Shown here: piece after piece, positions 9,667 to 48,098 of the stretch
Position numbering within the stretch: position 1 is the first letter of the stretch
Layout of the letters: every line of letters starts with the position of its first letter
Origin: a virus
IMG/VR virus record: IMGVR_UViG_3300024999_000045
Location: 32,001 to 96,000 of that record
Reading direction: 5' to 3' (one strand)
Length of the DNA stretch: 64,000 nucleotides
Notes under the pieces: model-generated
Database searches by the model: none
Seen by the model: only the letters and a program-made list of their open reading frames with translations
What the model was told of the DNA's origin: nothing
Program-made: the position numbers and the translations under genes

Positions 9667-10236
9667 ATGGAAAAATACGAAGTTTTTAATAAGGAATTAA
9701 ATTATATTAAAAATGCAAAAATCAAAGAATTCACAACTGAAGTGTTAAAAATTGTACCAGATTATTTTTGGGAAGTTCCAGCTTCGAGTACGTTTAAGTA
9801 CCACCCCTCTCCATCTAGAGAGGTAGGGGGTTTAATTTATCATACTAAATCCGCTGTGAGATTCGCTGTCGAGATGTTTGGGTTTCATAGTATGCAAAGT
9901 TATGATAATACAATGCAAAGCATAATAATTTCTGCATTAATACTTCATGATATGGCAAAGTCAGGGATACCAAAAACACAATATACAGTAACAGAACATC
10001 CGTTAATTGCTGCTAATTATATAAGAGAGCACAAAGATATTTGTGAGATTTTAGATAAAGAAATTTTAGATAAAATTCTATCTGGAATAGAGACACATAT
10101 GACCGAATGGAATAAAGATTATAAGACAGGCAAAGAAGTTCTTCCATTACCGACTCAGGGATATCAAAAATACATTGGTATTTGTGATTATTTAAGTAGT
10201 AGAAAATGTATGACTTTGGATTTAGATGAGGATTAA
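9667..10236 (+). CDS. HD-domain phosphohydrolase
   Basis: PASSTFKYHP...GGLIYHT...ALILHDMAK...EHP...IETH...ICDYLSSR. Confidence 0.85.
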   Translation: MEKYEVFNKELNYIKNAKIKEFTTEVLKIVPDYFWEVPASSTFKYHPSPSREVGGLIYHTKSAVRFAVEMFGFHSMQSYDNTMQSIIISALILHDMAKSGIPKTQYTVTEHPLIAANYIREHKDICEILDKEILDKILSGIETHMTEWNKDYKTGKEVLPLPTQGYQKYIGICDYLSSRKCMTLDLDED

Positions 10237-10919
10237 TGGGTTTATTAAATAATATGGTTGGAAGAATTTTTGGAAAGTTAACGGTTATAGCAAGAGATGT
10301 TGATAAATTACAAAATACATATTGGATTTGTAAATGTAGTTGTGAAAGTGGCAAAACTAAATCAGTAAGAGGTTCACATTTAAAAGCAGGCAGAATTCAA
10401 AGTTGTGGGTGTTTATATAATAAAATAAGAGGTCAAAAACTGCCGAATAATCAGTTTATATTTAGAGATAATTATAAAATTGGAATAACTTATGACGGGA
10501 AAGAATTTTATTATGATGTTGAAGATGCTTATTTTATTGAAGAACATACTTGGTATTTTGATAAAGACGGTTATGTTATAACTAGAATTAATAACAAAGG
10601 TGTAAAAATGCATAAATTAATTATTCCAAGTAGCAGAAATGAAATTATAGACCATAAAAATCAAAATAAATTTGATAATAGAAAAGATAATTTAAGAAAA
10701 TGTGATTCTAGTCAAAGTGCTATGAATATTAGACGAAGAAACCACAATACAAGTGGTGTTACTGGAGTTGGGTGGCATAAAACAAGCAATAAATGGAGAG
10801 TTAGAATTAATTATAATAAAAAATCTGTTTTTCTTGGAGAATTTGAAAATTTCGAAGACGCAGTGAAAGTACGCAAAGAAGCAGAACAAAAATATTTCGG
10901 AGAATTTGCACCAAAATAA
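10236..10919 (+). CDS. HNH-AP2 homing endonuclease
   Basis: GRIFGKLTV...WICKCSC N-terminus, IIDHKNQNKFDNRKDNLR (HNH), SGVTGVGWHKTSNKWRVRI...EDAVKVRKEAE (AP2). Confidence 0.9.
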   Translation: MGLLNNMVGRIFGKLTVIARDVDKLQNTYWICKCSCESGKTKSVRGSHLKAGRIQSCGCLYNKIRGQKLPNNQFIFRDNYKIGITYDGKEFYYDVEDAYFIEEHTWYFDKDGYVITRINNKGVKMHKLIIPSSRNEIIDHKNQNKFDNRKDNLRKCDSSQSAMNIRRRNHNTSGVTGVGWHKTSNKWRVRINYNKKSVFLGEFENFEDAVKVRKEAEQKYFGEFAPK

Positions 10920-11005
10920 TAAAATATAAACATAATAATTAAATATAATTAGAGTTTATACTCTTTTATATAGATAAAAAACATAGATTAAACGGAGGAT
11001 ATAAA

Positions 11006-12181
11006 ATGGCTAAAAAAGAAGAAAAAAAGGCATTAAAAAAAGGTCAAGCAAATTTTCAATTAATTGGCAAAGTAAAGATTGGTGATTTTACTTATAAAAT
11101 CGACCAACAATCAAAAACTTCAGATTGGCTTTATAATCAAATGAACCTTGGTGTTGATTGTGGAGATGGTAATATTGTATATGCAGATATGATGGGTGGC
11201 TATGGCACAGAAAGAGACAACGTATTATATGTACATGGCAAGAAAAAATCAGATAATAGTGACAAACTTATTGATGACTATGAAAACAGATATACAATTT
11301 CTTGGGAAGATAGATTTGATGAAACATTAACTGAAGGTATTGGTGAAAATTGTTTTATAACAGTTGGAATAGAAAAAGATAGTAAAGGTAAAACATTTGC
11401 TAAAAAATTCTTATCACAATACGATGCAATAGAATATACAAAAGAACATTTAGAAGATGGAACTATTGTTAATGTTAAAGGTTCTTTAAAATATAGTGAA
11501 TATAATGAAAGTTTACAAATTAAAAAAGAAATAAACTCTATATTTTTATCAAAAGTTGAAAAAGAATCCGATTTTAAAGCAAAATTTACTCAAACAATAC
11601 TTGTTCATAGAGATAGTGTTAGTTTTGATAAAGATAGAGAAGTTTATAATATTGAAGCTTATATTGTAGACTTTCTTGGAAAACTTGATAATAGAAAGAT
11701 AAATGAAAATATAGTATATACAAAGGTTTTTGAAATGGCAGTTGACCAAACTAATCCAGAAAAAACTAATAAATTAATTTCTAAGATATTCAAAACTTCT
11801 AAAGGTCTTAAAGAAATTACAGTTGAAGGCGAATTAGTAGAAGGACAATCAATGACAAAAGTATCTGCCGATGATATTCCTAATGATATAAAAGAATTGA
11901 TTGAATATGGTGCAATTACACTTGAAGATTATCAAGGAAGAGCTGCTATTGGTGGAAATAAAGAAAAGAAAATGGTAATTAAAACTCCTTCAATTAAGTT
12001 TGTTGAAAAAGATGGAGCAAAATCTCCAGTTATTCTTATGGAAGAAAGTAAATATCAAGAAAGTGATCTAGTATTTTTACATCAATTTTTAGAAGAAGAA
12101 ATAGAAGAATTAGAAGAAGATAGTGACGAAGATGATAGTGAAGACTTAGATGATGATTTAATGAGTTTATTAAATGACTAA
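11006..12181 (+). CDS. putative single-stranded DNA-binding / replication protein
   Basis: First gene of the replication block; very acidic C-terminal tail typical of SSBs; function inferred from position and tail only. Confidence 0.45.
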   Translation: MAKKEEKKALKKGQANFQLIGKVKIGDFTYKIDQQSKTSDWLYNQMNLGVDCGDGNIVYADMMGGYGTERDNVLYVHGKKKSDNSDKLIDDYENRYTISWEDRFDETLTEGIGENCFITVGIEKDSKGKTFAKKFLSQYDAIEYTKEHLEDGTIVNVKGSLKYSEYNESLQIKKEINSIFLSKVEKESDFKAKFTQTILVHRDSVSFDKDREVYNIEAYIVDFLGKLDNRKINENIVYTKVFEMAVDQTNPEKTNKLISKIFKTSKGLKEITVEGELVEGQSMTKVSADDIPNDIKELIEYGAITLEDYQGRAAIGGNKEKKMVIKTPSIKFVEKDGAKSPVILMEESKYQESDLVFLHQFLEEEIEELEEDSDEDDSEDLDDDLMSLLND

Positions 12182-12209
12182 AATATAAATATAATAATAG
12201 GAGGTAAAT

Positions 12210-13187
12210 ATGGGATTCAGAGATTCTAATTCAAAACAAATAGGTGGTAAATTTTTAGTATATGGTGATACAAGTTCGGGTAAAAGTTTTTTTACCCTTA
12301 CTTTTCCAAAATTAGCTTCTGTTGATAGCGAAGCAGGACTTGCACATTACGAGGGTAGAGACGTTGTTATTAATAATAAAAAATACAACAATTTAGTTAT
12401 TGTTGATAATACTGCTGATTTAGAAGACTTAGAGGATAGCTTAGATGATTTACTTGATGGAAAATATGATGGTAAAATTGAAAGTTTTGCAGTTGATAGT
12501 GAAACAAAATTTTATAATACAATGCAAGTTGGTGCTATGGAAGTAGAAGAAAGAAGAGCAAGAAAAAAAGGTGAAGATGTTGACGATCAAACTGTATCAC
12601 AAAGGCAATGGGGTAGAATTAAATTAATCAATATGAAACTTCAACAAGCTAAAATAGATTTATCTACTAAAGGTGTTCACGTTGTTTCTGTTGCTCAAGG
12701 AATGGATTTAAGAGATAAAGCAGGTAAAAATGTAATAGGTGAAAAACCAGATATGCATAAATCAGTTCCATTTGATTATGATACTGTTTTAAGATTCTAC
12801 AAAGAAAAAGATAAAACTACTGGAAAAATAAAGTTCTTTGCAGAAGTTGAGAAAGATAGAACCGAAGTTACAAATATAGGAGATATTTTTGAAAATTGTA
12901 CTTTTGATGTTTGGAAAGATTATTACAATAAAAAATCTAAACTAGATAAAATGGTTACAAATTATACTAAAGACTTAAAAACTTCTACTGAAGGAATTAT
13001 GACTGATGCTGACAAAGCTGATGAATTAGTAAAAGAATTTAAGGAAAATTTGAAAAAAGTAGCACCTGAAAGTCAATCTTTGGTTAATTCAAAGATAAAA
13101 GAATTAGAACTTTCAGTTAAAAATTTAAATATTTCAGACACAAATAAACTTCAACAATTAGTTAATTATACAAAGTCATTAGTCTAA
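12210..13187 (+). CDS. AAA ATPase (Sak4-like ssDNA annealing protein)
   Basis: Walker A YGDTSSGKS, Walker B FAVDSET, QRQWG motif. Confidence 0.7.
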   Translation: MGFRDSNSKQIGGKFLVYGDTSSGKSFFTLTFPKLASVDSEAGLAHYEGRDVVINNKKYNNLVIVDNTADLEDLEDSLDDLLDGKYDGKIESFAVDSETKFYNTMQVGAMEVEERRARKKGEDVDDQTVSQRQWGRIKLINMKLQQAKIDLSTKGVHVVSVAQGMDLRDKAGKNVIGEKPDMHKSVPFDYDTVLRFYKEKDKTTGKIKFFAEVEKDRTEVTNIGDIFENCTFDVWKDYYNKKSKLDKMVTNYTKDLKTSTEGIMTDADKADELVKEFKENLKKVAPESQSLVNSKIKELELSVKNLNISDTNKLQQLVNYTKSLV

Positions 13188-13236
13188 ACACAATATGGTG
13201 GGGATATAAATTATATCCCCACACAATTATATTAGG

Positions 13237-13707
13237 GTGATTAAATTGAAAACAATAGATAAAGGAAAACAAAAAGACTGGCTTGAATTATGTGATTATG
13301 TACACAAAGAGATATTAGAGTATGAAGAAGATATGAAATTCCCTAAAAAATTAGCATTAAGATTAAAAGGGTTGTCTTCAGGACAATTTCTAGCAAATAA
13401 TACTTTGAAACCACAAGCAAATTATGAATATAAAACTATCCTTTATACTTTTAAAATATACAAAACTGAAATACTTCAGGCAGTGCAAAGAAAATGCTCT
13501 GACTTCAAAAGTGAAGAGCATAAATGGAATTATGTAATGGCTATAGTTGAGAATAAAATAAATGATGTAGTTATTATGTTAAAAAAGAATAAAAAATCTA
13601 TGCAAAAAACAGAAAATATAGATACTTCTAATCATTTTAATAATAGTGCAGAATATAAAAAGAAAACTATAGAAAAGAAAAATTCAACATTAAATAAACT
13701 GTGGTAG
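13237..13707 (+). CDS. hypothetical replication-block protein
   Basis: ORF track; overlaps the helicase start. Confidence 0.65.
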   Translation: MIKLKTIDKGKQKDWLELCDYVHKEILEYEEDMKFPKKLALRLKGLSSGQFLANNTLKPQANYEYKTILYTFKIYKTEILQAVQRKCSDFKSEEHKWNYVMAIVENKINDVVIMLKKNKKSMQKTENIDTSNHFNNSAEYKKKTIEKKNSTLNKLW

Positions 13708-15209
13708 GTGATACTTTGGCAAAGAAAAATGATAAACTATCCGCTTTTGAAGAGGAGTTATTAAAGGGTATAAAAAAAGTTAAAGAATTTAAACTATCTT
13801 GCGAGGCTAATATAGTTTCTATTTTATACAAAAATCCCGACTTATATTATGATTATGAAAGTATCACAATAAAAAACTTTTCTTATAATGAGTGGAAGGT
13901 ATATTTTCAAATAGGTTATGACATTATTGTAAAAGAAAATAAAAAATCACTAGATGAGATTACGGTGGGTTTATATTTAGAAAAGCACTCTAAATTAAAA
14001 GAAAAATATACTGAATATGGTGGATTTGACACTATAGAAAAAGCCAAAGAATATGTAAAAGAAAAAAACATAATTGGATATGTTAATGAACTTCATAAGT
14101 GGAATACTGTTTTAGAATTGTTAAATAAAAAATTCCCAGTTGTAGATAGAATAAAAGAATTTGTTGATATGTCTTTAGAAGAAATGTATAACGAATATGA
14201 AGCTATTTTAAATCATGTTTTCATAAATGCAGAGAGTGATGACGCTTGTTATGATATAGCAGATAATATATATGAATTAATTGATGAATTAAATGAAGGC
14301 TCTGCAATCGGTATGCCATTACATAATGCCCCACTTCTGTCTAAAGAAATTGGTGGAGATTTAGTAGGAAATATTACTTTAGTTGGTGGACTAAGTGGTT
14401 CTGGAAAAAGCAGCATGGTTAGAACAACAAAAATACCTAGTGTTATTGAATTTGGTGAAAAATTAGTCATTATGATCAATGAAGAAGGTTTAAAAAAATG
14501 GCAACGTGAACTAATTGTTTGGGTTTCAAACAATATTTTTAAAGAAGACCTTCAGAAATATATTGTAAGGGACGGAAAATACAGTAAAGAAACTAAGGAT
14601 TTATTACTAAAATGTGCAGAATGGATTAAAAGTAATAGTGGATTAATAAAAGTAATTCCATTTAAAAAATATTCAACTAACAAAGCCATAAAAGTGATTA
14701 AAAAATATTCAAGTATTGGTGTTAAATATTTTGTATTAGATACATTCAAAGCTGATTCAAAAAGTAGTAATAACGATGCATTTTGGATTAATATGCAACA
14801 AAGTATGGTTGATATATACGACACTATAAAACCAGACCAAAAAAATGTACATATCACAATTACATTTCAACTTAGTAAAAGTAGTTCTAAACAAAGATAT
14901 TATACACAAGAAAATGTTGGTATGGCTAAAAATATGATTGATGTAGCTTCAACTTGTATAATGATTAGACAATTGTTTGATGATGAGTTTGAAGGTGAGA
15001 AAAAAGAATTAAAAGTATATAGGTTAGAAGGTAAAAATAATAAAACTAAAATACCAGTAAAATTAACTAAAAACAAGCATTATCAAGTAATTTTTATTGT
15101 AAAAAATAGAGAAGGTGCTAGTAATGATTATCAAATAGTAGTTGAACATGATTTAAGTAGAAATACTTATAAAGAAATAGGAATTACGACTGTACCAGTA
15201 GATTTTTAA
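13701..15209 (+). CDS. dnaB: replicative DNA helicase (DnaB-like)
   Basis: Walker A GGLSGSGKS, Walker B FVLDTFK, ITFQLS, IVKNREG. Confidence 0.85.
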   Translation: MVGDTLAKKNDKLSAFEEELLKGIKKVKEFKLSCEANIVSILYKNPDLYYDYESITIKNFSYNEWKVYFQIGYDIIVKENKKSLDEITVGLYLEKHSKLKEKYTEYGGFDTIEKAKEYVKEKNIIGYVNELHKWNTVLELLNKKFPVVDRIKEFVDMSLEEMYNEYEAILNHVFINAESDDACYDIADNIYELIDELNEGSAIGMPLHNAPLLSKEIGGDLVGNITLVGGLSGSGKSSMVRTTKIPSVIEFGEKLVIMINEEGLKKWQRELIVWVSNNIFKEDLQKYIVRDGKYSKETKDLLLKCAEWIKSNSGLIKVIPFKKYSTNKAIKVIKKYSSIGVKYFVLDTFKADSKSSNNDAFWINMQQSMVDIYDTIKPDQKNVHITITFQLSKSSSKQRYYTQENVGMAKNMIDVASTCIMIRQLFDDEFEGEKKELKVYRLEGKNNKTKIPVKLTKNKHYQVIFIVKNREGASNDYQIVVEHDLSRNTYKEIGITTVPVDF

Positions 15210-17031: not shown

Positions 17032-18157
17032 ACAGATAAAAAAGAAATATAATATTAGTGAATTATGGAGTTGGAGCAAATATAATACATACAAAACAGA
17101 TAAATTTGAATATTTCTTGAAATACATCAAACAAACAAAACAAGATAGAAATGATTCTATATACGGTGCCAGTGGAAATGCTGCACATGATATTATAGAA
17201 AAGTTTTATAATAAAGAAATTAAATATGAAGAAATGATAGACGAATATGAAGACGCATTATTTAAATTTAATATAGCAAAATTAAAATATGATAGATGTG
17301 ATGAAGATAAAAATGAAAAAATAGCAAATAAATATGAAGAATGTATGAGACATTTTTTCTTAAATCATCAAATATTGCCTTATAAATTAATTTTAGAAGA
17401 GTTTTTATTAATAAAAGTTGGTGAATTTCTATTTCAATCATACTTAGACTGTGTTCATAAAGAAATTAGAGACGGAAAAGCAAAGTACCTAGTTACAGAT
17501 TTTAAAACATCGAGTATTTATACTGGTAAAAAAATAAACAAAGAACGTGGTCAATTAGTATTATATGCAGAAGGACTAAGGCAAAAATTAAATATACCAT
17601 TAGAAGATATAATAATAAGATGGGCATTTCTAAAATATGTTGAAGTTGAACAAATGCAAGCCAATGGCAAGGTCTCATATAGAAATATAGAGAGAAATAA
17701 AATTGGTGAAAGTTTAACTGCTGGTGCAAAAATGTGGTTAAAAAAAGAAAAATATAGTGAAGAAGAAATAGAAGACTTTATTTTTTTAATGGAAGAGACA
17801 AACAATATATTATGTTTACCAGAAAGTGTTAGAGAAAAATTTGTTATCAAAGATTGCTATGTTGAAATTCCACTAGATCAAAAAGTTATTGATGATTTAA
17901 AATCTGAAATCATAAGCACAATAATTGAAATTAAAAAACTTGAAAATGAATATATAAAAACTAAAAATGAAAAGTTATTTTGGCAAGATGTAGACAAAGA
18001 GCATTCATATTATATGGCTAATTTAAGTTCATATAGCAGAAATATACATAAACCATACGATGAATATTTAACAAATATTGAAATCATGAGTGGTGGAAGT
18101 AATAGTAAAAGAGATGATGACGATGATTTAAAAGATTTATTGAATTTACTTGACTAA
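17006..18157 (+). CDS. PD-(D/E)xK exonuclease (RecB/Cas4-like)
   Basis: WSWSKYN...GNAAHDIIE...YLDCV...VTDFKTS...QLVLYA. Confidence 0.85.
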   Translation: MRKTQKQLEQIKKKYNISELWSWSKYNTYKTDKFEYFLKYIKQTKQDRNDSIYGASGNAAHDIIEKFYNKEIKYEEMIDEYEDALFKFNIAKLKYDRCDEDKNEKIANKYEECMRHFFLNHQILPYKLILEEFLLIKVGEFLFQSYLDCVHKEIRDGKAKYLVTDFKTSSIYTGKKINKERGQLVLYAEGLRQKLNIPLEDIIIRWAFLKYVEVEQMQANGKVSYRNIERNKIGESLTAGAKMWLKKEKYSEEEIEDFIFLMEETNNILCLPESVREKFVIKDCYVEIPLDQKVIDDLKSEIISTIIEIKKLENEYIKTKNEKLFWQDVDKEHSYYMANLSSYSRNIHKPYDEYLTNIEIMSGGSNSKRDDDDDLKDLLNLLD

Positions 18158-18196
18158 ATATAAACATAATTATATAATAAATGAGGTGAAGGTTAT

Positions 18197-21100
18197 ATGA
18201 TATATAATAATTACCATAAACATGACCATTATTCAAATACTAGAACACCAGATGTTATAGTAAAACCAGAAGATTATATTAGTAGGCTATTAGAATTAGG
18301 TCATACACATTATTTTACAACTAATCACGGTTGTAGTGGAAATGTTTTTGAAGCTTATGATTTATGTAAGAAAAATGATTTGAAAATGGTTTATGGTATG
18401 GAAATGTATTATGTTGATGATAGATTTGAAAAAAACAGAAAAAACTTTCATATAATTGTAATCGGACTAACTAAAAATGCTTATTATCATATAAATAGAA
18501 TATCCTCAGAAGCTAATAAAACAGGTTTTTATTATCACCCAAGAGTAGACAGAGAATTATTATTAAGTTTACCTAAAGATGAAGTAATAATTACAACAGC
18601 ATGTATAAATAATAGAATATTTGGTGGTGAAAACGGCATTGAAGAGTTTTTAATTCCACTAAAAGAACATTTTAACAATAATTTTTTATTAGAAGTTCAA
18701 AATCACAATCACCAAATCCAAATTGAATGGAATAAAAAAATATTAGAATTATCAAAAAAATATTCAATTTCAATTATACATGGAAATGATTCACATTATA
18801 TTTATCCTGAACAATCTAAAGATAGAGTAGAATTTTTAAAAGGAAAAGGTATGAATTATGGAGATGAAGATTCTTTTATTTTAGATTTTCCAAATTATGA
18901 AACAATATTAAATAGATATAAAAATCAAGGAGTTTTAAATGATGAACAAATTTACCAATCTTTAGAAAATACTTTAATTTTTGATAAAGCTGAGGATTTA
19001 AATTTTACAAAAGAAATAAAAATGCCAACTATATATCCAAATTTAACACCACATGAAAGACTTTTAAAACTTAAAGACATAATAGTTGATAAATGGAATA
19101 AAGAATCTAAAAACATTCCAATAAATGAACACAAAAAGTATAAAGAAGCAATAAAATTTGAAATGAAGATATTAAAAGAAACAAATGAAGTTAAAACATC
19201 AGATTATTTTCTGATTAATGAAAAAATAATAGATATTGGTGTAAATAAATACGACGGAATTCTAACAAGGACGGGTCGTGGATGTTTTACAGAAGATGCA
19301 CTTGTTCACACAAAAAATACATTGAAATCAATCAAAGATATTAAAATTGGTGATGAAGTTATTACAAAAGATGGTAAATTTAATAAAGTAATAAATACTA
19401 TGGCGTATGACGTAAATGAAAAGTTAATTCAAATTAAACATTTATATGGTACTGATAAATATTATCCTACAATATGTACTTCAGACCACAAAATTTTAAT
19501 AAATAGAAATGGGAAAGTAGAATGGATTGCTGCCAAAAACATTATAAAATCAGATTTTGTATGTGTTCCAAAAATAAAAAGTCAATCAATATTGCCAGGG
19601 TATATTGATTTAAATAATTATAATATTTTTGGTTATGAATTTGATGAAAAATATATATATGAATATTCACCATATATTAATAATGAATATACATATTCTC
19701 CTACGGAAGTTTCTAGAACAATAGGAGTAGGAAAAAGTGTTTTTGAAAAATTTGCTAATGGAGATAAAAATGTTTTGACTAATAAAAAATATTGGGCAAG
19801 AGAAAAATTTTTTGAATTATTTCCTTTTAATACACAAGAAGATTATGTTAAATATATAAAACAGAAAAGAACGAAAAAAATTAATCGTTATATCAAATTA
19901 GATAAAACATTTAATCAATTTATAGGTTTAATGTACGGAGATGGATTTGCACCAAAAAATAGACCTTATACAATTGGATTAGCTATAAATAATACAACTA
20001 AAAAAGATGAAATTAACAGAAAAATATTTTTTGAGATTGCATATAAATTTAATATTGATGTTTATGAAAATAAAAGTAAAATAAAAAAATTATCTCAATT
20101 AACAATAAATTCAAATATTATTTCGAGATTTATTAGAGCTGATTTGTTTATATCTCAACAAAATAAAGAGAAACAATTTAATAATAAGTGGTTTAATCAA
20201 GATAAAAATAATTTGATTGGAATAATCGAGGGTTTAAGATTTTCCGATGGAAGTTTTCCATGTGAAAATCAAACAGATAGACGAATAAATTTTGATAATA
20301 CTTCTAAATCAATAGTGAATGCTTATAAAATTTTATGTTTAATGACAGATGAAGGTATTAACAGTCTAAATGTAAGACCTTCATGGTTAGATAAAAGTAA
20401 TTATAAATGTAAAGAAAGTTATAAATTAAGAATTAATAAAAATTCAGATGATGCAAAAAAAATAACAGAAAGAACTTTTCAAGATGATAATTATTGGTAT
20501 CTACCAATAAAAGAGGTTGTATTTTTACCAAAGCAAAAGACAAAAGTTTATGATATAACGGTTGAAAATGAACATAATTATCTATTAAATAATATGATAG
20601 TACATAATTCGGCAGTATCTTTTTATATTAATAAACTCTTAGGATTTACTGAAGTAGATAGATTAAAAGCAGATGTTCCATTATATCCAACAAGGTTTAT
20701 GAGTGTTTCAAGAGTTCTTGGTACTAAGTCAATGCCCGATATAGATTTTAACACTGCAAACCCTGAACCATTTATTAAAGCAAGTAAAGATGTTTTAGGT
20801 GAAGACGGCGTTTATTATATGATTGCTTATGGTACTATGAAAGAGTCTGGTGCTTTTAGAAATCTTTGTAGGGCTAGAGGTATGGAAGTTCAAGAATATA
20901 ATGAGGTAGCAAAAGATTTAGAAAAATATATAAATGACTCAAAATGGAAAGATTTAATAGAAGAATCCAAAAAATTTATAGGTGTTATTGATTCGATTTC
21001 ACCCTCTCCTTGTAGCTTTTTATTATTAGATAAACCAATATCTAAAGAAATAGGTTTAATAAGAGTAGGGAATGAAATATGTTGTTGTATAGATGGATAT

Positions 21101-41420: not shown

Positions 41421-42566
41421 ATGTCTAAAAAGTATACCATACAAGAAATAAAAGATTATTTAAAGATATTTAATTGCAAATTATTAATAGAAGAATATAA
41501 AGATGTATTTTCGAAATTAAAAATAGAATGCTCTTGTAAAAATATATTTTATAGAGGGTTTAAAGACTTTAAATCAAGTGGCGGGACATGTAATATATGT
41601 ACACAAAAAAATACAAATAATAAAACAAAATTAGATAAAAATATTGTAAAAAGTACAATTAATAAAATGGGCTATGAATTAAAGTCTTTAGACTATATTA
41701 ATGCTAATTCAAAAATAGAAATAGAATCATATGAGGGTTATAAATATAAAGTTGTTTATGGTAGTCTACAACAAAGTCACATTCCAGACGCTTTTTCTAT
41801 AACTAACCCTTTTTCTATTTATAATATTAATATATGGACAGAAAAAAATATTAAACCGTTTTTATTAATATCCTATAAATTTTTAGGTTCAAATTCAAAA
41901 TTAACTTGGGCATGTAAAATATGTGGTGAAAACTGGGACGCAACATGGTCAAGTATTTATTCTAGTAAAAGTGGGTGCCCATATTGTGTTAATCAAAAAG
42001 TTAGTAAAAATAATAATTTATCAATTACTCACCCAAATTTATTAGAAGAGTGGCATTATACTAAAAATAAAAAGTCACCAAATTTATATACTCATGGTAG
42101 TGATTCTATAGTGTGGTGGGAGTGTAATACTTGTAGGTTTGAATGGAAAGCACGAATTGCCAACAGGACTAATGGGCGAAATTGCCCAAATTGTATGTTG
42201 TCTAAAGGTGAATTAAAAATATATGAATATTTAAAGAAAAATAATATCAATTTTGAACAACAATATGAGTTTAATGATTTATTATCAGAACTAGGAAATC
42301 CACTAAAATTTGATTTTGTTATATTTAATAATAATGATAACATTAGCTGCTTAATCGAATTCGATGGAATACAACATTTTAAACCCGTAGACTATTTTGG
42401 TGGCGAAAAAGGGTTTATGGCACAACAAATCAGTGATGAAAGTAAAAATGAGTATTGCAAAAACAACAATATTAAACTTAAAAGAATATCTTATTTAGAA
42501 TTTGATAATATTGAAGAAATATTAACATACTTAATAAAAGAGTGTAATATGCCTTGGATAAAATAA
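41421..42566 (+). CDS. free-standing endonuclease with zinc-ribbon repeats and a DUF559/Vsr-like C-terminal domain
   Basis: WACKICG...GCPYC, WWECNTC...CPNC, SKGELKI...FDF...IEFDGIQH...DESKNEYC. Confidence 0.75.
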   Translation: MSKKYTIQEIKDYLKIFNCKLLIEEYKDVFSKLKIECSCKNIFYRGFKDFKSSGGTCNICTQKNTNNKTKLDKNIVKSTINKMGYELKSLDYINANSKIEIESYEGYKYKVVYGSLQQSHIPDAFSITNPFSIYNINIWTEKNIKPFLLISYKFLGSNSKLTWACKICGENWDATWSSIYSSKSGCPYCVNQKVSKNNNLSITHPNLLEEWHYTKNKKSPNLYTHGSDSIVWWECNTCRFEWKARIANRTNGRNCPNCMLSKGELKIYEYLKKNNINFEQQYEFNDLLSELGNPLKFDFVIFNNNDNISCLIEFDGIQHFKPVDYFGGEKGFMAQQISDESKNEYCKNNNIKLKRISYLEFDNIEEILTYLIKECNMPWIK

Positions 42567-42678
42567 AAACATAAAAACAAAATAAATTTACTCTTTATGT
42601 ATTGACATTATTTGTTATATAATATATTATATTTATATTGAATATGACAAATAATGTCAACAACAAAGGAGATTCACA

Positions 42679-44004
42679 ATGTTTAAAGAGTTTTTACAGA
42701 ATTTAGTGGTTAATGTGCCATATATTACATTTATGATTTTAGGTTTTATATTTTTATTTGGATATAGAGATAAATTTTCAAAATCAAAAGTTATAACTTA
42801 TATAATGATAGGTTCAATTTTAGATAGTGTAATACAAATATATTTAGAGAAAAACGCTTATATGTTTATCAGCATTTTAATTTCTATAATTTTAATTAGA
42901 ATTATGTTTAAAATAAACCCATTAGCAACAATTGTATCCTACTTAATTTTATTTTTTATAGACTTCGTTGTGCAGATAATAATGTATATTATTTTAGCAT
43001 TAGGTTTTAAACTAGATATTAATATATTTTCACATCAAGTATATTTTACCTTATGTTATATAATAGTTTGGGTTTTGGCATTATATAATATTATTAAATC
43101 TAATTTTGTAATATTAAATATGCAAAAGTATAATATATTTTCAGATAAAAAATTTAATAAATTTATTGATGATAATGTAAAAATATTACTAACAACATTT
43201 TTAATCTTTATGATAGTAAATTGTATTAATTTATTAGTATATTATTATGGATTATCAAATCATAAGTCGTTTGAACCATTAACATATCTCACCTTGTTAT
43301 TTTTTAACACAATTATTTTTGCAACTATGATAATTTGGTTGATAAGTAAATTATATTCCTTAAAACAATACCAAATAAAATACAATTTAAGAAAAAAATA
43401 TTCTAAGAGCATTAAACACTTAATTAAAGGACTAAAATACGAAAAAAGAACTTTTTCTAATTATTTAAATGTTATAAATGGATATGTATCATTAGGAAAA
43501 TGTAATGAAGCTCAAGAATATATACAAAAAATACACAAATCTATTGTTACCGATAAAAAAGATGACAAATCTGAAGATGGATTAGATATTATAAATATTA
43601 TTAATTCAAAAATCATAGCAGCAGAACAAAAAAATATTAATATACAAGTAAATAATGACGCCAATATGAAAATAAATGCATTCGAAATTGAATATGCTGT
43701 TACAATAATTATTGATTTTATATTTAAATATGTTGAAGTATTGAGTATTAGTAAAAGAAATATTAATGTAAATACTTATTCTGATGACCACAATTATTCC
43801 TTAGAGTTTGATTTTACTGGAGAGCAAATACCAGAAAATTATTTATTAGATGAAAATGAAGATTTATATATTTCAAAATACATAATCAATACCAATAATG
43901 GCAATATGCAACTAACATATGAAAAAAATGATTTCAATTTTTACAACAAAATAAAAATATTATTTCCTAAAGAAGATGGTGCAAATGAACTTATTAAATA
44001 TTAA
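42679..44004 (+). CDS. agrC: AgrC-like membrane receptor, predicted catalytically dead histidine kinase
   Basis: Multi-TM N-terminal half, then DHp- and GHKL-like region; H box reads LKYEKRTFSNYL (His replaced by Arg) and N/G1/G2 boxes are degenerate; lies upstream of agrB and agrD. Confidence 0.75.
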   Translation: MFKEFLQNLVVNVPYITFMILGFIFLFGYRDKFSKSKVITYIMIGSILDSVIQIYLEKNAYMFISILISIILIRIMFKINPLATIVSYLILFFIDFVVQIIMYIILALGFKLDINIFSHQVYFTLCYIIVWVLALYNIIKSNFVILNMQKYNIFSDKKFNKFIDDNVKILLTTFLIFMIVNCINLLVYYYGLSNHKSFEPLTYLTLLFFNTIIFATMIIWLISKLYSLKQYQIKYNLRKKYSKSIKHLIKGLKYEKRTFSNYLNVINGYVSLGKCNEAQEYIQKIHKSIVTDKKDDKSEDGLDIINIINSKIIAAEQKNINIQVNNDANMKINAFEIEYAVTIIIDFIFKYVEVLSISKRNINVNTYSDDHNYSLEFDFTGEQIPENYLLDENEDLYISKYIINTNNGNMQLTYEKNDFNFYNKIKILFPKEDGANELIKY

Positions 44005-44557
44005 ATATTATGCTTTTAGTTTATCAAATTTTATAGCAAAAACAAGAAATGAAAGCCATGCAAAAAGATATGAATATTATTATGGCTCATTAATATTATT
44101 AGAGACAATATTTCAATTAGTGTTATTTCTGGTAATTGGACTAGCTTTTAACATTTTAAAAGAAGTTATGATATCTTTATTAGCATTTGGAACTTTAAGG
44201 TTTTATGCAGGCGGCTATCATGCTAACACTTTTAAAAAATGCACTCTATTTAGTCTAGTTATTATCTTATCTTCAGTATTTTTATCACAATATATATTGA
44301 ATTTTATGAATATTATATTGATAATTATTTCCATTGTAGTATTATATATTTATGCTCCAACCGATCATAAAAACAAGCCAATAACAAATGAAGCTCAGAG
44401 AAGTAAATTTAAGATTATATCTATTTTTATATTCGTTATTTGGATACTGCTAGGCACATTTTTATTAAAAGACTATTCCTTACTAATTAATATATCGTTG
44501 CTTTTTGAAAGTTTAAGTTTAATTAAGGTTTCAACCATGCCGAAATTTGGCAAATAA
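43976..44557 (+). CDS. agrB: AgrB peptide-processing protease
   Basis: LRFYAGGYHANTFKKCTLFS keeps the catalytic His and Cys; YAPTDHKNKP motif; multi-TM. Confidence 0.92.
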   Translation: MVQMNLLNIKYYAFSLSNFIAKTRNESHAKRYEYYYGSLILLETIFQLVLFLVIGLAFNILKEVMISLLAFGTLRFYAGGYHANTFKKCTLFSLVIILSSVFLSQYILNFMNIILIIISIVVLYIYAPTDHKNKPITNEAQRSKFKIISIFIFVIWILLGTFLLKDYSLLINISLLFESLSLIKVSTMPKFGK

Positions 44558-44577
44558 CATATAAGGAGGAACTAAAA

Positions 44578-44700
44578 ATGTTAATTTTTCTAGCTGATGT
44601 TTTAAGTGCGTTATTATCTGCCGTATCAACTCTTGATATGTCTATAATGTCACCTGTAATTATCCACCAACCAAAAGCACCAAAATCTTTAATTAAGTAA
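44578..44700 (+). CDS. agrD: AgrD autoinducing peptide precursor (40 aa)
   Basis: AAGGAGG RBS; MLIFLADVLSALLSAVSTLDMSIMSPVIIHQPKAPKSLIK with the clostridial HQPxxPxxL tail; absent from the ORF track. Confidence 0.88.
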   Translation: MLIFLADVLSALLSAVSTLDMSIMSPVIIHQPKAPKSLIK

Positions 44701-44759
44701 TATGAATTAAACTCGACATTATAAGAAGTTTGACATAATAATAAGAAGTTTGTACATAG

Positions 44760-44793
44760 CACAAGCTCATTATATAATTTTAATGAGCTTGTG
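44760..44793 (+). terminator. stem-loop after agrD
   Basis: 13 bp perfect stem CACAAGCTCATTA/TAATGAGCTTGTG; weak T tract. Confidence 0.7.
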
Positions 44794-44848: not shown

Positions 44849-45541
44849 ATGGAGGTAATTATGAAAGGTAAAGTAATTGTTTTAGAATCACCAGACGGTT
44901 GTGGTAAAGCAACGCAAACAAAATTACTATATGATAAATTAAAATCTAAAGGCTATAATGTAATGCATTTAGATTATCCAAGATATAGTATGCCATCTTG
45001 TTTATTAGTGGAATCATATTTAAACGGTGAATTTGGTACTAATGCTCAAGAGATTAGTCCTTATATGGCGTCAAGTTTTTATGCAATAGACAGATATATA
45101 AGTCATCTAGTTGAATGGAAAGAATTTTATGATAATGGTGGAATTATGATTTTCGACCGCTATTCTAGCAGCAATATTTTACACCAAACAAGCAAAATCA
45201 AAGATAAAGTTGAAAAATATAAACTTATTAATTGGTTGGAACAACTAGAATTTGAAACATATTCATTGCCTAGACCTGATGTGGTGTTCTATTTAAATAT
45301 GCCAATTGAACAAAGTATTAAACTTATGGAGAACAGAAAGAACAAAATTAATGGTGAAGATAAAAAAGATATCCATGAATCAGATAAACAACATTTAATT
45401 GATGCTCATGAGAATGCTACGGATATTATTAATATATACGAATGGACTGTAATTGATTGTATGGATAGGGATAAGAAACTTAAAAGCATTGATGATATAC
45501 ATGAAGAAATTTATGAATTGGCGGTTAGTTATTTAGAATAG
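44849..45541 (+). CDS. tmk: thymidylate kinase
   Basis: VIVLESPDGCGKATQ, YAIDRY, IFDRY, LPRPDVVFYL. Confidence 0.92.
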   Translation: MEVIMKGKVIVLESPDGCGKATQTKLLYDKLKSKGYNVMHLDYPRYSMPSCLLVESYLNGEFGTNAQEISPYMASSFYAIDRYISHLVEWKEFYDNGGIMIFDRYSSSNILHQTSKIKDKVEKYKLINWLEQLEFETYSLPRPDVVFYLNMPIEQSIKLMENRKNKINGEDKKDIHESDKQHLIDAHENATDIINIYEWTVIDCMDRDKKLKSIDDIHEEIYELAVSYLE

Positions 45542-45643: not shown

Positions 45644-45862
45644 ATGAAAGTTGAAAATATAATATTGGAAGGTAAAAATACATATTTAATTTGGGTTAAT
45701 AATCAAGAAAAAAACCTACCAAATATCCAAGATGATATAAATAAATATAAAAACATAAACACGAGGGTTGTTGTTTTTTATTCTGGTGATAAATATACCT
45801 TGCAAGAATCAACACAAAAACTAATAGAAGGATTAAACAACAATATTACAAGTATATTTTAA
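45644..45862 (+). CDS. small protein preceding the serine integrase
   Basis: AAGGAG RBS; VVVFYSGD motif. Confidence 0.65.
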   Translation: MKVENIILEGKNTYLIWVNNQEKNLPNIQDDINKYKNINTRVVVFYSGDKYTLQESTQKLIEGLNNNITSIF

Positions 45863-45868
45863 ATATAC

Positions 45869-45897
45869 TTGTTTTTTTTACTTAAATTGGATATAAT
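45869..45897 (+). promoter_or_regulatory. sigma-A-like promoter for the integrase
   Basis: TTGTTT 45869-45874, 17 bp spacer, TATAAT 45892-45897. Confidence 0.55.
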
Positions 45898-45934
45898 ACT
45901 TTATTATAACACACTATACAAAGGAGTTACTGAG

Positions 45935-47497
45935 ATGGAAAATGCAGTTGGATATATTAGATTAAGTAGGGACGAAGATAAACAAAATTATAGTTCAATT
46001 ATTAATCAAAAAAATATAATTATTGATTATTGTGAAAAAAATAACATTAAAATTATTGATTTTTATATTGATGATAATTATAGTGGATATACATTTGAAA
46101 GACCCTCTTTTAAAAAAATGTTATTAGATTTAGAAAATAAAAATATTGACGTGATAATAGCGAAAGACCTTTCTAGAATTGGCAGACATAATGCAAGAAC
46201 ATTATTATTTTTAGAGTCAATAACAGAATTAAATAAAAATATTATTTTAATTGATGAACAAAGCGGTGGATATAATTTAAAAAAAGACGACGATAGTATG
46301 ATAGGAATCAAAACATGGGTAAATGAAATGTATGTAAAAGATATTTCAAAAAAAATAAGAAGTAGTTTTACATCTAAACAAAAAGAAGGAACTTTGGTTT
46401 TTAAGGCACCATTTGGATATAAAAAAGACAAAATAAGTAAATCAGATTTACTTATAGACGAAGAAACATCTCAATATGTAAAATTAATTTTTGAGCTATA
46501 TCTTCAAGGAAATGGTTATATTAAAATATGTAATATTTTAAATGATAAAAATATACCAACACCCTCTATAGTACAACAAAGAGATTTGTCTAATAACGGG
46601 AAAATATTTAAGAATAAGGTTTCTAAAATATGGCAGTCCCATCATATTCAAAGAATTATTAAAGACGATGTATATACGGGTAGTTTAAGGTGTGGAAAAA
46701 CAAGAAAACAGGCAATTAAAGGTAAAACAATTTATCAAGATAAAGATCTTCATATTTTACACGAAAACCATCACGAGCCAATAATTTCTTTAGACGACTT
46801 TTCTATGGCACAAGATGTTAAAAATAAAAGAAATAAAACTCATTATAAAGGTGGGTCTAAAAATACGTATATGTTTTCTGGATTTGTTTTTTGTAATGAT
46901 TGTGGTGGATATATGATTGGAAGGACATATAAAAATGGTGTAAAATATTATGAATGTGGTAAATATAGTAAATATGGCCTTAAACAATGTACTACACATT
47001 ATATAAAAGAAACATTGCTTATTAATTTGTTTAAAATATATTTACAAAAAGTAAAAAACCAAATTGAAGAATTTATAAAAGATATTAATATTGAAAATCA
47101 TGAAAAAGACATAAATGAAATAATTAAAACACTTAAAAATGAATATATAATTAAAAAAGAAGAATTAAAGACAATATTATCTGAAAAAATAAAAGCATTA
47201 ATAAATGAAAAAAAAGACGAATATAAAGATATAGTAGAACAAAGTTATAAAGAAATTGAAGAAGAAAAAAAAGAAGAAATTAATTTTATATCAAATAGAT
47301 TAAATAAACTTAATAACACAAAAGATGATGATATTTATATTAAAACTAAAAATTCAATTGATTTATATTCCAATTTAATTGAATCTAATAATTTTAAAAA
47401 AAAGGAATTAGAATTGATTTTAGATAAAATAATGGTTAACCATCAAAGAGATGTAGATATAAATTTAATATCAAATATTAATGATTTTATTGGGTAG
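45935..47497 (+). CDS. large serine recombinase (integrase)
   Basis: AVGYIRLSRDE (catalytic Ser), DDNYSG...RPSF, AKDLSRIGR, APFGY, recombinase domain, FSGFVFCNDCGG zinc ribbon; AAGGAG RBS favours ATG 45935. Confidence 0.93.
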   Translation: MENAVGYIRLSRDEDKQNYSSIINQKNIIIDYCEKNNIKIIDFYIDDNYSGYTFERPSFKKMLLDLENKNIDVIIAKDLSRIGRHNARTLLFLESITELNKNIILIDEQSGGYNLKKDDDSMIGIKTWVNEMYVKDISKKIRSSFTSKQKEGTLVFKAPFGYKKDKISKSDLLIDEETSQYVKLIFELYLQGNGYIKICNILNDKNIPTPSIVQQRDLSNNGKIFKNKVSKIWQSHHIQRIIKDDVYTGSLRCGKTRKQAIKGKTIYQDKDLHILHENHHEPIISLDDFSMAQDVKNKRNKTHYKGGSKNTYMFSGFVFCNDCGGYMIGRTYKNGVKYYECGKYSKYGLKQCTTHYIKETLLINLFKIYLQKVKNQIEEFIKDINIENHEKDINEIIKTLKNEYIIKKEELKTILSEKIKALINEKKDEYKDIVEQSYKEIEEEKKEEINFISNRLNKLNNTKDDDIYIKTKNSIDLYSNLIESNNFKKKELELILDKIMVNHQRDVDINLISNINDFIG

Positions 47498-47548: not shown

Positions 47549-47619
47549 GAGTGTACAACCCTTGATTTTACTACATTTATATAATATAATTATATAATAC
47601 CATAAAAGGAGTGACCCAT

Positions 47620-47955
47620 ATGTTATTTAAATCATTACTTAAATGTTCAAATTGCAACTATACATTCAGAGCAAGGAAAGAACGCAATCATATAAAATAT
47701 CGCTGTAGTAATAGATTAAAAAATGGAATAAATTCTTGTTCAAATGACAGCGTAATAACTGAAGAAGAACTTATTTACCATACAAAAAAACAATTTGAGT
47801 TATATGAGATAGATTTTAACTTAGATAATGAATATTTAAAAACTGTAATTAAAGATATTATAGTTCAACCAAATAATAATTATATGATTAATTATAAAAA
47901 CAAATCATTTGACTCAACAATAATATCTGACACTAAGATTTATTGGGGAAATTGA
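47620..47955 (+). CDS. stand-alone recombinase-type zinc-ribbon protein
   Basis: LFKSLLKCSNC...KYRCSNR...C resembles the ZD of large serine recombinases; AAGGAG RBS. Confidence 0.75.
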   Translation: MLFKSLLKCSNCNYTFRARKERNHIKYRCSNRLKNGINSCSNDSVITEEELIYHTKKQFELYEIDFNLDNEYLKTVIKDIIVQPNNNYMINYKNKSFDSTIISDTKIYWGN

Positions 47956-48069: not shown

Positions 48070-48098
48070 TTGACAAAATGCGACATGATTGATATAAT
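48070..48098 (+). promoter_or_regulatory. consensus sigma-A promoter with extended -10 and no downstream ORF
   Basis: TTGACA 48070-48075, 17 bp spacer, TG-A-TATAAT 48090-48098. Confidence 0.75.

Follow-up and report, generated by a model that had tools for sequence, protein, structure and literature searches.

The agrC-agrB-agrD cassette of the phage record IMGVR_UViG_3300024999_000045 encodes an AgrC-like protein, here called AgrC*, which is predicted to be a full-length, fold-retaining and catalytically dead homologue of the HPK10 (AgrC-type) histidine kinases, that is, a pseudokinase and not a fragment. The record, taken from IMG/VR, is linear, 130,449 bp long and 69% complete by CheckV; the window analyzed is the 64,000-nucleotide stretch made up of its bases 32001-96000, and positions are those of the window unless given as record positions. 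Neither ATP binding nor phosphate acceptance on the canonical His is predicted for AgrC*. We argue that the protein is a selected pseudokinase rather than a product of neutral decay, because its catalytic columns have been lost selectively, its reading frame is open, and a second lineage conserves a His-to-Arg exchange; selection for a pseudokinase had been proposed in a preliminary description made from the letters of the window, and these three lines support it. What is unusual about the locus is the dead kinase and a response regulator of the phage's own, not the missing regulator neighbor. Our tentative reading, to which we give somewhat less than an even chance, is that AgrC* is a non-catalytic peptide receptor acting through its DHp surface on the pathway of the phage regulator, with lysogeny or integration as the output.

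Loss and retention in the AgrC homologue

Pfam recognizes the 441-aa protein only through SPOB_a, a DHp model (29.4 bits, cut-off 28.1); HATPase models do not match it. When 1.84 billion representatives were searched exhaustively with HMMER, 56 matches to the receptor were obtained. The nearest relatives, P0003 to P0006 (24 to 31% identity, E 2e-29 to 4e-16; 468 to 471 aa in the full-length ones), are ordinary SPOB_a plus HATPase_c_5 kinases, and the matches of P0003 to P0005 span AgrC* residues 3 to 427 (E 2e-29 to 7e-25). Losses in the H, N, G1, and G2 motifs, all noted in the preliminary description, are confirmed by alignment to these kinases. The phospho-acceptor column, which holds His in 68 of 68 intact relatives, holds Arg257 in AgrC*, within an H box that reads LKYEKR257TFSNYLNV where the nearest relatives have LRxQKHGFINHLNV; in the same box the next Asp has become Thr and the second His Tyr. 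The N box is IIIDFIF instead of NIIDNAF (N343I, N347F), and G1 is FDFTGEQIP instead of IxNTGKTIP (N379F, with Gly381 retained). The F box (GFSTK) and the G2 lid are deleted (ENYLLDENE-DLYISK versus FEEGFTTK..DHGFGLYISK), the G2 glycines G393 and G395 being replaced by Asn and Asp. With columns assigned to the H, N, G1, F, and G2 boxes according to established knowledge of histidine kinases, AgrC* retains 1 of 17 conserved catalytic or ATP-binding columns (Gly381), compared with 19 of 34 other conserved cytoplasmic columns (Fisher p = 6e-4), and the non-identical scaffold columns mostly carry conservative substitutions. Because three defining features of AgrC kinases are missing, we regard AgrC* as a homologue and not a functional member of that group.

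Full-length homology and structure prediction agree with the earlier view that the transmembrane sensor and the DHp/GHKL scaffold have been kept. In the AlphaFold2 (AF2) model built with an alignment (predicted local distance difference test score, pLDDT, 86), six to seven helices span the membrane, and the DHp hairpin is accompanied by a CA-like domain of alpha/beta type; Foldseek retrieves with it DHp-CA kinases that include Staphylococcus aureus AgrC (6E52/6E95). The ESM Atlas model of AgrC* reaches TM (template modeling) scores of 0.70 to 0.73 to HATPase_c_5 kinases. Single-sequence AF2 was uninformative (pLDDT 44.5), and the lone match of a PDB sequence search, TPR-like and confined to the DHp hairpin, was rejected as spurious. 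By ESM Atlas features, the cytoplasmic half of the receptor came closest (0.95) to two clusters of 58 to 64 Bacillota "hypothetical proteins" of 226 to 267 aa, which share no common Pfam family and may be further unannotated dead-kinase modules.

At 20% GC, one codon in ten should by composition be a stop, yet the agrC* frame stays open over 441 codons (P ~ 2e-21); the remaining five frames of the gene contain 15 to 60 stops. Arg257 is encoded by AGA, at least 3 nucleotide changes from a His codon (CAY). Some 16 motif columns lost, two deletions and this codon distance indicate that the loss is old, and yet scaffold and frame persist. Six contigs, drawn from three sources, carry the identical protein, and the longest of them measures 134,554 bp. 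The lineage of AgrC* is so far a single phage; no diverged close relative was found, and a word-index protein search gave nothing for the receptor.

Intact motifs are the rule among the bacterial kinases related to AgrC* (20 to 28% identity). The H box [EQ]KHDF[AS]NH[IL]N and the N box are intact in all 32 relatives fetched from GTDB, and GxGL in 30; the exact form EKHDFANHI/LN occurs in 29 of the 32, the search pattern being one that would have admitted Arg at the His position. On other viral contigs, AgrC genes adjacent to agrB keep the motifs in six of six cases, five of them with a regulator directly upstream. Alignment of homologs had been suggested as a check for conserved loss; these 32 bacterial and 6 viral relatives keep the motifs, and the second lineage described below conserves a dead module. 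The AgrC-like gene of the viral contig IMGVR_UViG_3300006213_001383 (L041:3360-4730) keeps the motifs and has one in-frame stop in its CA region, which may be a sequencing error or mark a recent pseudogene.

The second lineage comprises the metagenome proteins P0008 (437 aa) and P0034, which also have Arg at the His position (EQREFRNKLQV and ERREFRNKLQV, respectively) and lack the N box and G2. Relatives of P0008 (P0059, P0060, and P0061; 66 to 74% identity) are without an HATPase match in any of the three. Identity within the P0008 family is 61% in the sensor, 86% in the linker plus DHp and 79% in the CA-like domain, a pattern that, by these comparisons, is that of a pheromone receptor in which the sensor diversifies and the signaling module is constrained. 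This conservation of the dead module beyond that of the sensor shows that purifying selection can act on an HPK10 module without catalysis, and hence that a pseudokinase of this kind can be functional. In all three Arg lineages the Phe at +2 and the Asn at +4 from the lost His are kept; in other kinase families the +4 position is required for phosphatase action. A quick tree groups AgrC* with the intact P0003 to P0006 (approximate likelihood ratio test, aLRT, 92), apart from a P0008/P0034 clade (aLRT 98), which suggests two origins of His-to-Arg receptors, on numbers too small to choose between convergence and common descent. The DHp core of AgrC* is 39% identical to that of P0008 and 31 to 38% identical to those of its nearest intact kin, and it has the LGKC hairpin turn in common with P0008. 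On the one 2-kb contig available for the P0008 family (L036; gene at 1-1311) no agrB lies directly downstream. P0008 was absent from the 399 Clostridia genomes and from the 3 Clostridium genomes searched.

The phage regulator, the signal, and the operon

As the preliminary description stated, the window holds no agrA or LytTR gene; the statement does not extend to the record. No AgrA partner adjoins the cassette, and a LytTR search of the whole record gave a single match (record 13787-14053), within a gene at record 13361-14071 that lies 60.6 kb before agrC* in the same phage. Its product is an intact REC+LytTR regulator (Response_reg E 2e-17, LytTR E 5e-16), in which the acidic pair, acceptor Asp, Thr, and Lys align to CheY, leaving the phospho-acceptor pocket intact. 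The proposal that the cassette forms a non-phosphorelay system is therefore not established, as this regulator may be phosphorylated by a host kinase. The gene has its own extended -10 promoter and follows, after a terminator hairpin, a gene for an MrpR-like protein (312 aa; PF22822 at E 9e-15, plus PF22823). Three tandem 10-bp units (ATTATAATAA) stand just upstream of the regulator promoter. The module to which both genes belong (Table 1) resembles the yopP-yopQ-yopR end of the SPbeta repression operon, in which MrpR is the master repressor and arbitrium lies alongside (PMC10516654). The word-index protein search with the regulator returned itself and one relative of 29% identity, and its best matches in three Clostridium genomes, at 26 to 33% identity, do not identify a host or a partner. 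A predicted complex of an AgrC* dimer (residues 206 to 441) with the receiver domain of the regulator scored 0.11 against a mark of 0.32 and weighs neither way.

Signal production had been described as intact, and both components bear this out. AgrB matches PF04647 at E 1e-38; its catalytic His82 and Cys89 are invariant columns in alignments with 8 to 22 clostridial AgrB sequences, as are R75, G79, G80, Y81, T85, P128, D130, N133, and K134. By these matches the agrB product is the predicted AgrD-processing membrane peptidase. AgrD (40 aa) scores 31.2 bits with TIGR04223 (cut-off 19), contains no Cys and ends in the tail S25-PVII-HQPKAPKSL. The ring residue is presumably Ser25 (S-P-V-I-I), judging from alignment to clostridial AgrD sequences, and the phage signal is thus probably an AgrB-processed cyclic peptide with a Ser-lactone ring. 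The tail also carries a P-x-x-P motif (PKAP), the AgrD criterion of Hargreaves et al. (PMC3901668).

By its signals and gene order, the segment 42602-44793 reads as one autonomous transcription unit of promoter, agrC-like gene, agrB, agrD and terminator, with all three open reading frames (ORFs) in the same direction (Table 1). The terminator accounts for the end of the cassette at 44793 given in the preliminary description. The promoter, TTGACA-17-TATTAT at 42602-42630, is near consensus, with 11 of 12 positions matching. It sits in a long imperfect palindrome with 37-nt arms (42591-42627 and 42635-42671) and a perfect 14-bp core, TTGACATTATTTGT (42602-42615) and ACAAATAATGTCAA (42647-42660), a 14-mer that is absent from the rest of the 130-kb record at up to 2 mismatches. 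The palindrome could be an operator or, alternatively, a hairpin that masks the ribosome-binding site (RBS) of agrC* in read-through transcripts. The two reading frames overlap where agrC* ends and agrB begins, an arrangement suggestive of translational coupling.

Table 1. Predicted features of the agr cassette, its downstream neighbors and the distant repression module
Feature	Position	Strand	Basis or description
Promoter region	42591-42671	+	Promoter scan, sequence, inverted repeat
agrC*	42679-44004	+	441-aa polytopic receptor; strong RBS
agrB	43976-44557	+	193 aa; PF04647; true start possibly ATG 43985
agrD	44578-44700	+	40 aa; TIGR04223; strong RBS AAGGAGG
Direct repeats	44718-44752	+	Candidate LytTR-type regulator site and promoter facing tmk/recombinase
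Terminator of agr operon	44760-44793	+	13-bp perfect stem, 8-nt loop, T-rich tail
Thymidylate kinase (tmk)	44849-45541	+	PF02223
72-aa ORF	45644-45862	+	ORF list
Large serine recombinase	45869-47497, probable start 45932	+	PF00239+PF07508+PF13408
Repression module	Record 9788-14071 (L037:2789-7072); 18-22 kb ahead of the window		Tyrosine-recombinase-like gene (362 aa, PF00589), 431-aa gene, MrpR-like gene (312 aa), REC+LytTR regulator gene

Sites of LytTR regulators such as AgrA and VirR are usually direct repeats about 20 to 21 bp apart that abut the -35 element. Between the agrD stop and the terminator, two direct repeats share a perfect 12-bp core, ATAAGAAGTTTG, at 44721 and 44741, a period of 20 bp; the second overlaps a -35-like TTGTAC located 17 bp before a TATAAT (44773-44778) that falls inside the terminator loop. 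Perfect direct repeats of at least 12 bp at a spacing of 17 to 25 bp occur 3 times in the record, compared with ~0.2 per shuffled genome, and the other two fall within coding regions, so that the agrD-tmk pair is the only intergenic one. The 12-mer ATAAGAAGTTTG is not enriched genome-wide (49 matches at up to 2 mismatches, 45 expected), and no regulon is definable from it. By analogy with the usual sites we infer a candidate promoter, dependent on a regulator, from which tmk, the 72-aa ORF and the serine recombinase would be transcribed. The distance from the agrD stop to the recombinase ORF, 1.17 kb with tmk and the 72-aa ORF between them, agrees with the 1.3 kb within which the cassette had been placed from the integrase.

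The GC content is 22 to 30%, a helicase-like phage protein is closest to proteins of Enterocloster phages and Clostridium phage c-st (35 to 45% identity), and the bacterial relatives of the receptor found in a one-genome-per-species scan are nearly all from Clostridium or Clostridiaceae; by these affinities the host is most likely a low-GC Clostridium. The features that recall SPbeta are the MrpR-family repressor match, the large serine recombinase and the record size of ~130 kb, and it is on these, not on whole-genome relatedness, that the label SPbeta-like rests. No AimR (PF22871) match was present in the record at E<=1, while the Bacillus subtilis control passed the cut-off; membership in the arbitrium systems (an AimR receptor with AimP) is thus not indicated at this threshold. 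HATPase domains were likewise absent from the 130-kb record (PF14501, none at E<=10; PF02518, none at E<=1). Searches of a phage collection with the cassette and the receptor (blastn/tblastn) gave no match, and scans of viral and metagenome contigs gave none for the receptor, P0008, P0004 or the recombinase.

Several neighboring genes are recorded here in their own right. The product of the gene immediately before the agr operon (41421-42566; 381 aa) combines two DUF4379 domains of the treble-clef zinc-finger type with a C terminus that weakly resembles a DUF2726 nuclease, and no terminator was found between this gene and the promoter palindrome. Directly after the 542-aa serine recombinase, a 114-aa ORF (47611-47955) with a recombinase zinc ribbon (PF13408, E 8e-10) could be what is left of a second recombinase, or a C-terminal part that has been split off. 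At about 47950-48200 gene orientation and GC skew flip, with a promoter of perfect consensus (TTGACA-17-TATAAT with TG) in the gap at 48070-48098, and this region beside the recombinase is likely to hold attP and divergent promoters. Elsewhere, record 17078-18853 (L037:10079-11854) encodes a ClpX-like AAA+ unfoldase (zf-C4_ClpX plus AAA_2) followed by a DUF1256/germination-protease-like protein, an unusual pair for a phage of a spore-former.

Possible routes of signaling

In the mechanism that we tentatively propose, selection would have preserved AgrC* as a non-catalytic receptor, gated by peptide, whose DHp surface passes the signal on by contact with other proteins; Phe259 and Asn261 (+2 and +4 from the lost His) are retained. 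Its most likely client would be the AgrA-like REC+LytTR regulator of the phage. Since the record holds no competent kinase, the phosphate on this regulator would come from a host kinase or from acetyl phosphate, and AgrC* would hold, release or dephosphorylate the regulator according to the level of the phage peptide. The output would be a lysis-lysogeny or integration decision, possibly made through the direct-repeat site before tmk and the recombinase, and the system would occupy the place that arbitrium has in SPbeta. The fuller version, in which an SPbeta-like clostridial phage has swapped arbitrium for an agr-type system whose Arg-for-His pseudokinase gates a phosphorylatable AgrA-like regulator by contact (trapping, release or phosphatase-only action), is conceivable and on balance unlikely. 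If true, the phage combines an input from host kinases with its own peptide count to decide on lysogeny or integration, and the His-to-Arg HPK10 pseudokinases (AgrC*, the P0008 family, and P0034) are an undescribed class of non-catalytic peptide receptors.

Several points weigh against this mechanism. AgrC* is identical on all 6 contigs, its nearest relatives are ~30% identical and synonymous divergence (dS) is saturated, which makes constraint in the lineage unmeasurable. The cytoplasmic domains have diverged beyond the sensor relative to intact kin (ratios of 0.60 for DHp and 0.52 for CA versus 0.73 for the sensor), a pattern that fits a changed function and also relaxed constraint. The AF2 fold leans on an alignment mostly of intact kinases. 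AgrC* and the regulator are tied by a shared genome only, with 60 kb between their genes; the bacterial relatives of the cassette are never found with a neighboring regulator and may signal elsewhere, for example to an unlinked AgrA or Spo0A. The direct repeat matches LytTR sites in geometry only, and, as the record is 69% complete, a kinase could lie in the missing DNA.

The foremost rival, which we regard as unlikely, directs AgrC* at host proteins instead of the phage regulator, in the service of jamming or lysogenic conversion. It may form dead heterodimers with host AgrC-type kinases, or bind or dephosphorylate a host regulator (possibly Spo0A or an unlinked AgrA), while the peptide may cross-inhibit host receptors and the phage regulator separately eavesdrop on host kinases. 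Inhibition by heterodimers of the RetS type exists. The cassette is moron-like, having its own promoter and terminator beside a recombinase, and the DHp core is the best-kept cytoplasmic part of AgrC*, as would befit such a role; contact-working pseudokinases are known (DivL, PMC4211667), and agrC-agrB without a neighboring regulator is the norm in Clostridium, the regulator being unknown (PMC8748961). However, 20 to 28% identity to any bacterial kinase found is low for specific heterodimerization, and a phosphorylatable AgrA-like regulator beside the repressor of a kinase-less phage is left unexplained.

Should AgrB and AgrD alone matter, as in the agrBD pair of Clostridioides difficile agr1, agrC* would be a dead gene not yet disrupted. 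The loss of every catalytic motif, a cytoplasmic part more diverged than the sensor and the absence of close relatives that could reveal purifying selection all agree with such a relic. We nevertheless judge it improbable: a frame of 441 codons has stayed open in 20% GC DNA against the odds given above, 19 of 34 scaffold columns survive losses that are old, agrC* keeps a strong RBS and its overlap with agrB, the sensor half is still homologous to intact receptors, and the parallel His-to-Arg family is clearly constrained. More improbable still is a split receptor, in which AgrC* is the peptide-binding half and a separate sensor-less kinase, from the host or from unassembled phage DNA, phosphorylates the phage regulator; an intact receiver without a kinase in a record rated 69% complete would be accounted for, but no candidate soluble kinase was seen, and the longest contig with the identical protein is just 4 kb longer than the record. 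That AgrC* is still a kinase through unconventional residues is barely credible, for although other cytoplasmic His residues exist (H246, H286, and H370), AgrC* has lost Asn347, which binds Mg/ATP, as well as Asn343, the Asn of G1 and the G2 lid in its entirety, and no HATPase model matches even at E<=10.

If the contact-signaling pseudokinase favored here is functional, a two-component receptor can be converted into a contact-signaling device, and the case would point to more AgrC-like receptors of the His-to-Arg kind in Bacillota, a larger family that has gone unannotated. A dead-kinase receptor looks like a means of peptide sensing not so far described for a phage; the literature found on AgrC and "pseudokinase" consisted only of DivL papers and reviews, none describing an AgrC-like pseudokinase. 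The locus offers a testable circuit of signal synthase, dead-kinase receptor, LytTR regulator beside a master repressor, and candidate site before the integrase, and it bears on how regulator-less clostridial agr cassettes relay their signal.

Relation to known systems

Among contact-signaling pseudokinases, DivL of Caulobacter (PMC4211667; bioRxiv 10.1101/812529) resembles AgrC* in that the histidine kinase fold is kept and the phospho-His replaced, and in the role proposed, which is to bind a response regulator and not to phosphorylate it. DivL differs in belonging to another kinase family, in having Tyr for His, in keeping its CA domain, and in being neither a peptide receptor nor phage-borne. 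The AgrC/AgrA pair of S. aureus (agrBDCA) shares with the phage system the polytopic sensor-DHp-CA architecture, the fold match, the AgrB/AgrD pathway and a REC+LytTR regulator in the same genome; unlike it, AgrC* has no phospho-His or ATP site, the phage regulator is unlinked, and Ser takes the place of Cys as the predicted ring residue.

The nearest bacterial relatives found are those of the clostridial Agr "System 1", whose regulator-less agrD1-agrC1-agrB1 cassettes are present in Clostridium autoethanogenum, C. ljungdahlii, C. ragsdalei, and C. drakei, with the regulator unknown (PMC8748961). System 1 and AgrC* share a kinase subfamily and the position of agrB directly after agrC. Among the 32 bacterial loci agrB directly follows the kinase in 26, and a receiver or LytTR gene lies within 6 kb in none; because regulator-less cassettes are normal in this clostridial subfamily, the missing neighboring agrA is not in itself unusual here. 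In relatives of the System 1 type the H box (mostly EKHDFANHIN) and the N box are intact, as is G2 for the most part, whereas in AgrC* they are not, and the agrD of these relatives lies upstream of agrC, whereas that of the phage lies downstream of agrB. "Candidatus Clostridium eludens" (L004, L005, L007, L008, and L017) has no fewer than 5 paralogous kinases of the AgrC type, all sharing one H box, EKHDFANHIN; agrB follows at least 2 of them and no regulator lies near any, an arrangement that suggests several peptide channels feeding into a single unlinked regulator.

The phage system nearest in layout is agr3 of the C. difficile phage phiCDHM1 (Hargreaves et al. 2014; PMC3901668), the precedent named in the preliminary description for a cassette without agrA, and rightly so. 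It, too, is phage-borne and of low GC, with the order agrC-agrB-agrD, no adjacent regulator and an AgrD that carries P-x-x-P. Its AgrC, however, keeps HATPase_c, whereas AgrC* is predicted to be catalytically dead, and phiCDHM1 is without any response regulator, whereas the phage described here encodes an intact REC+LytTR protein elsewhere. In a 2025 review of phage quorum sensing, the only phage agr genes listed are kinase cassettes that lack a regulator (PMC11945551).

Phage peptide communication is known mechanistically almost solely from arbitrium; phage agr genes such as those of phiCDHM1 have been reported and never explained. With arbitrium (AimR-AimP-AimX; PMC10516654) the present system would share a phage peptide signal, a large temperate phage, an MrpR-family repressor and a signal-responsive regulator gene adjoining the repressor operon. 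No AimR is present here, and the regulator lies downstream of the repressor gene, whereas it lies upstream in arbitrium phages. Arbitrium relies on an imported hexapeptide, whereas the signal here would be a cyclic peptide, processed by AgrB and sensed at the membrane.

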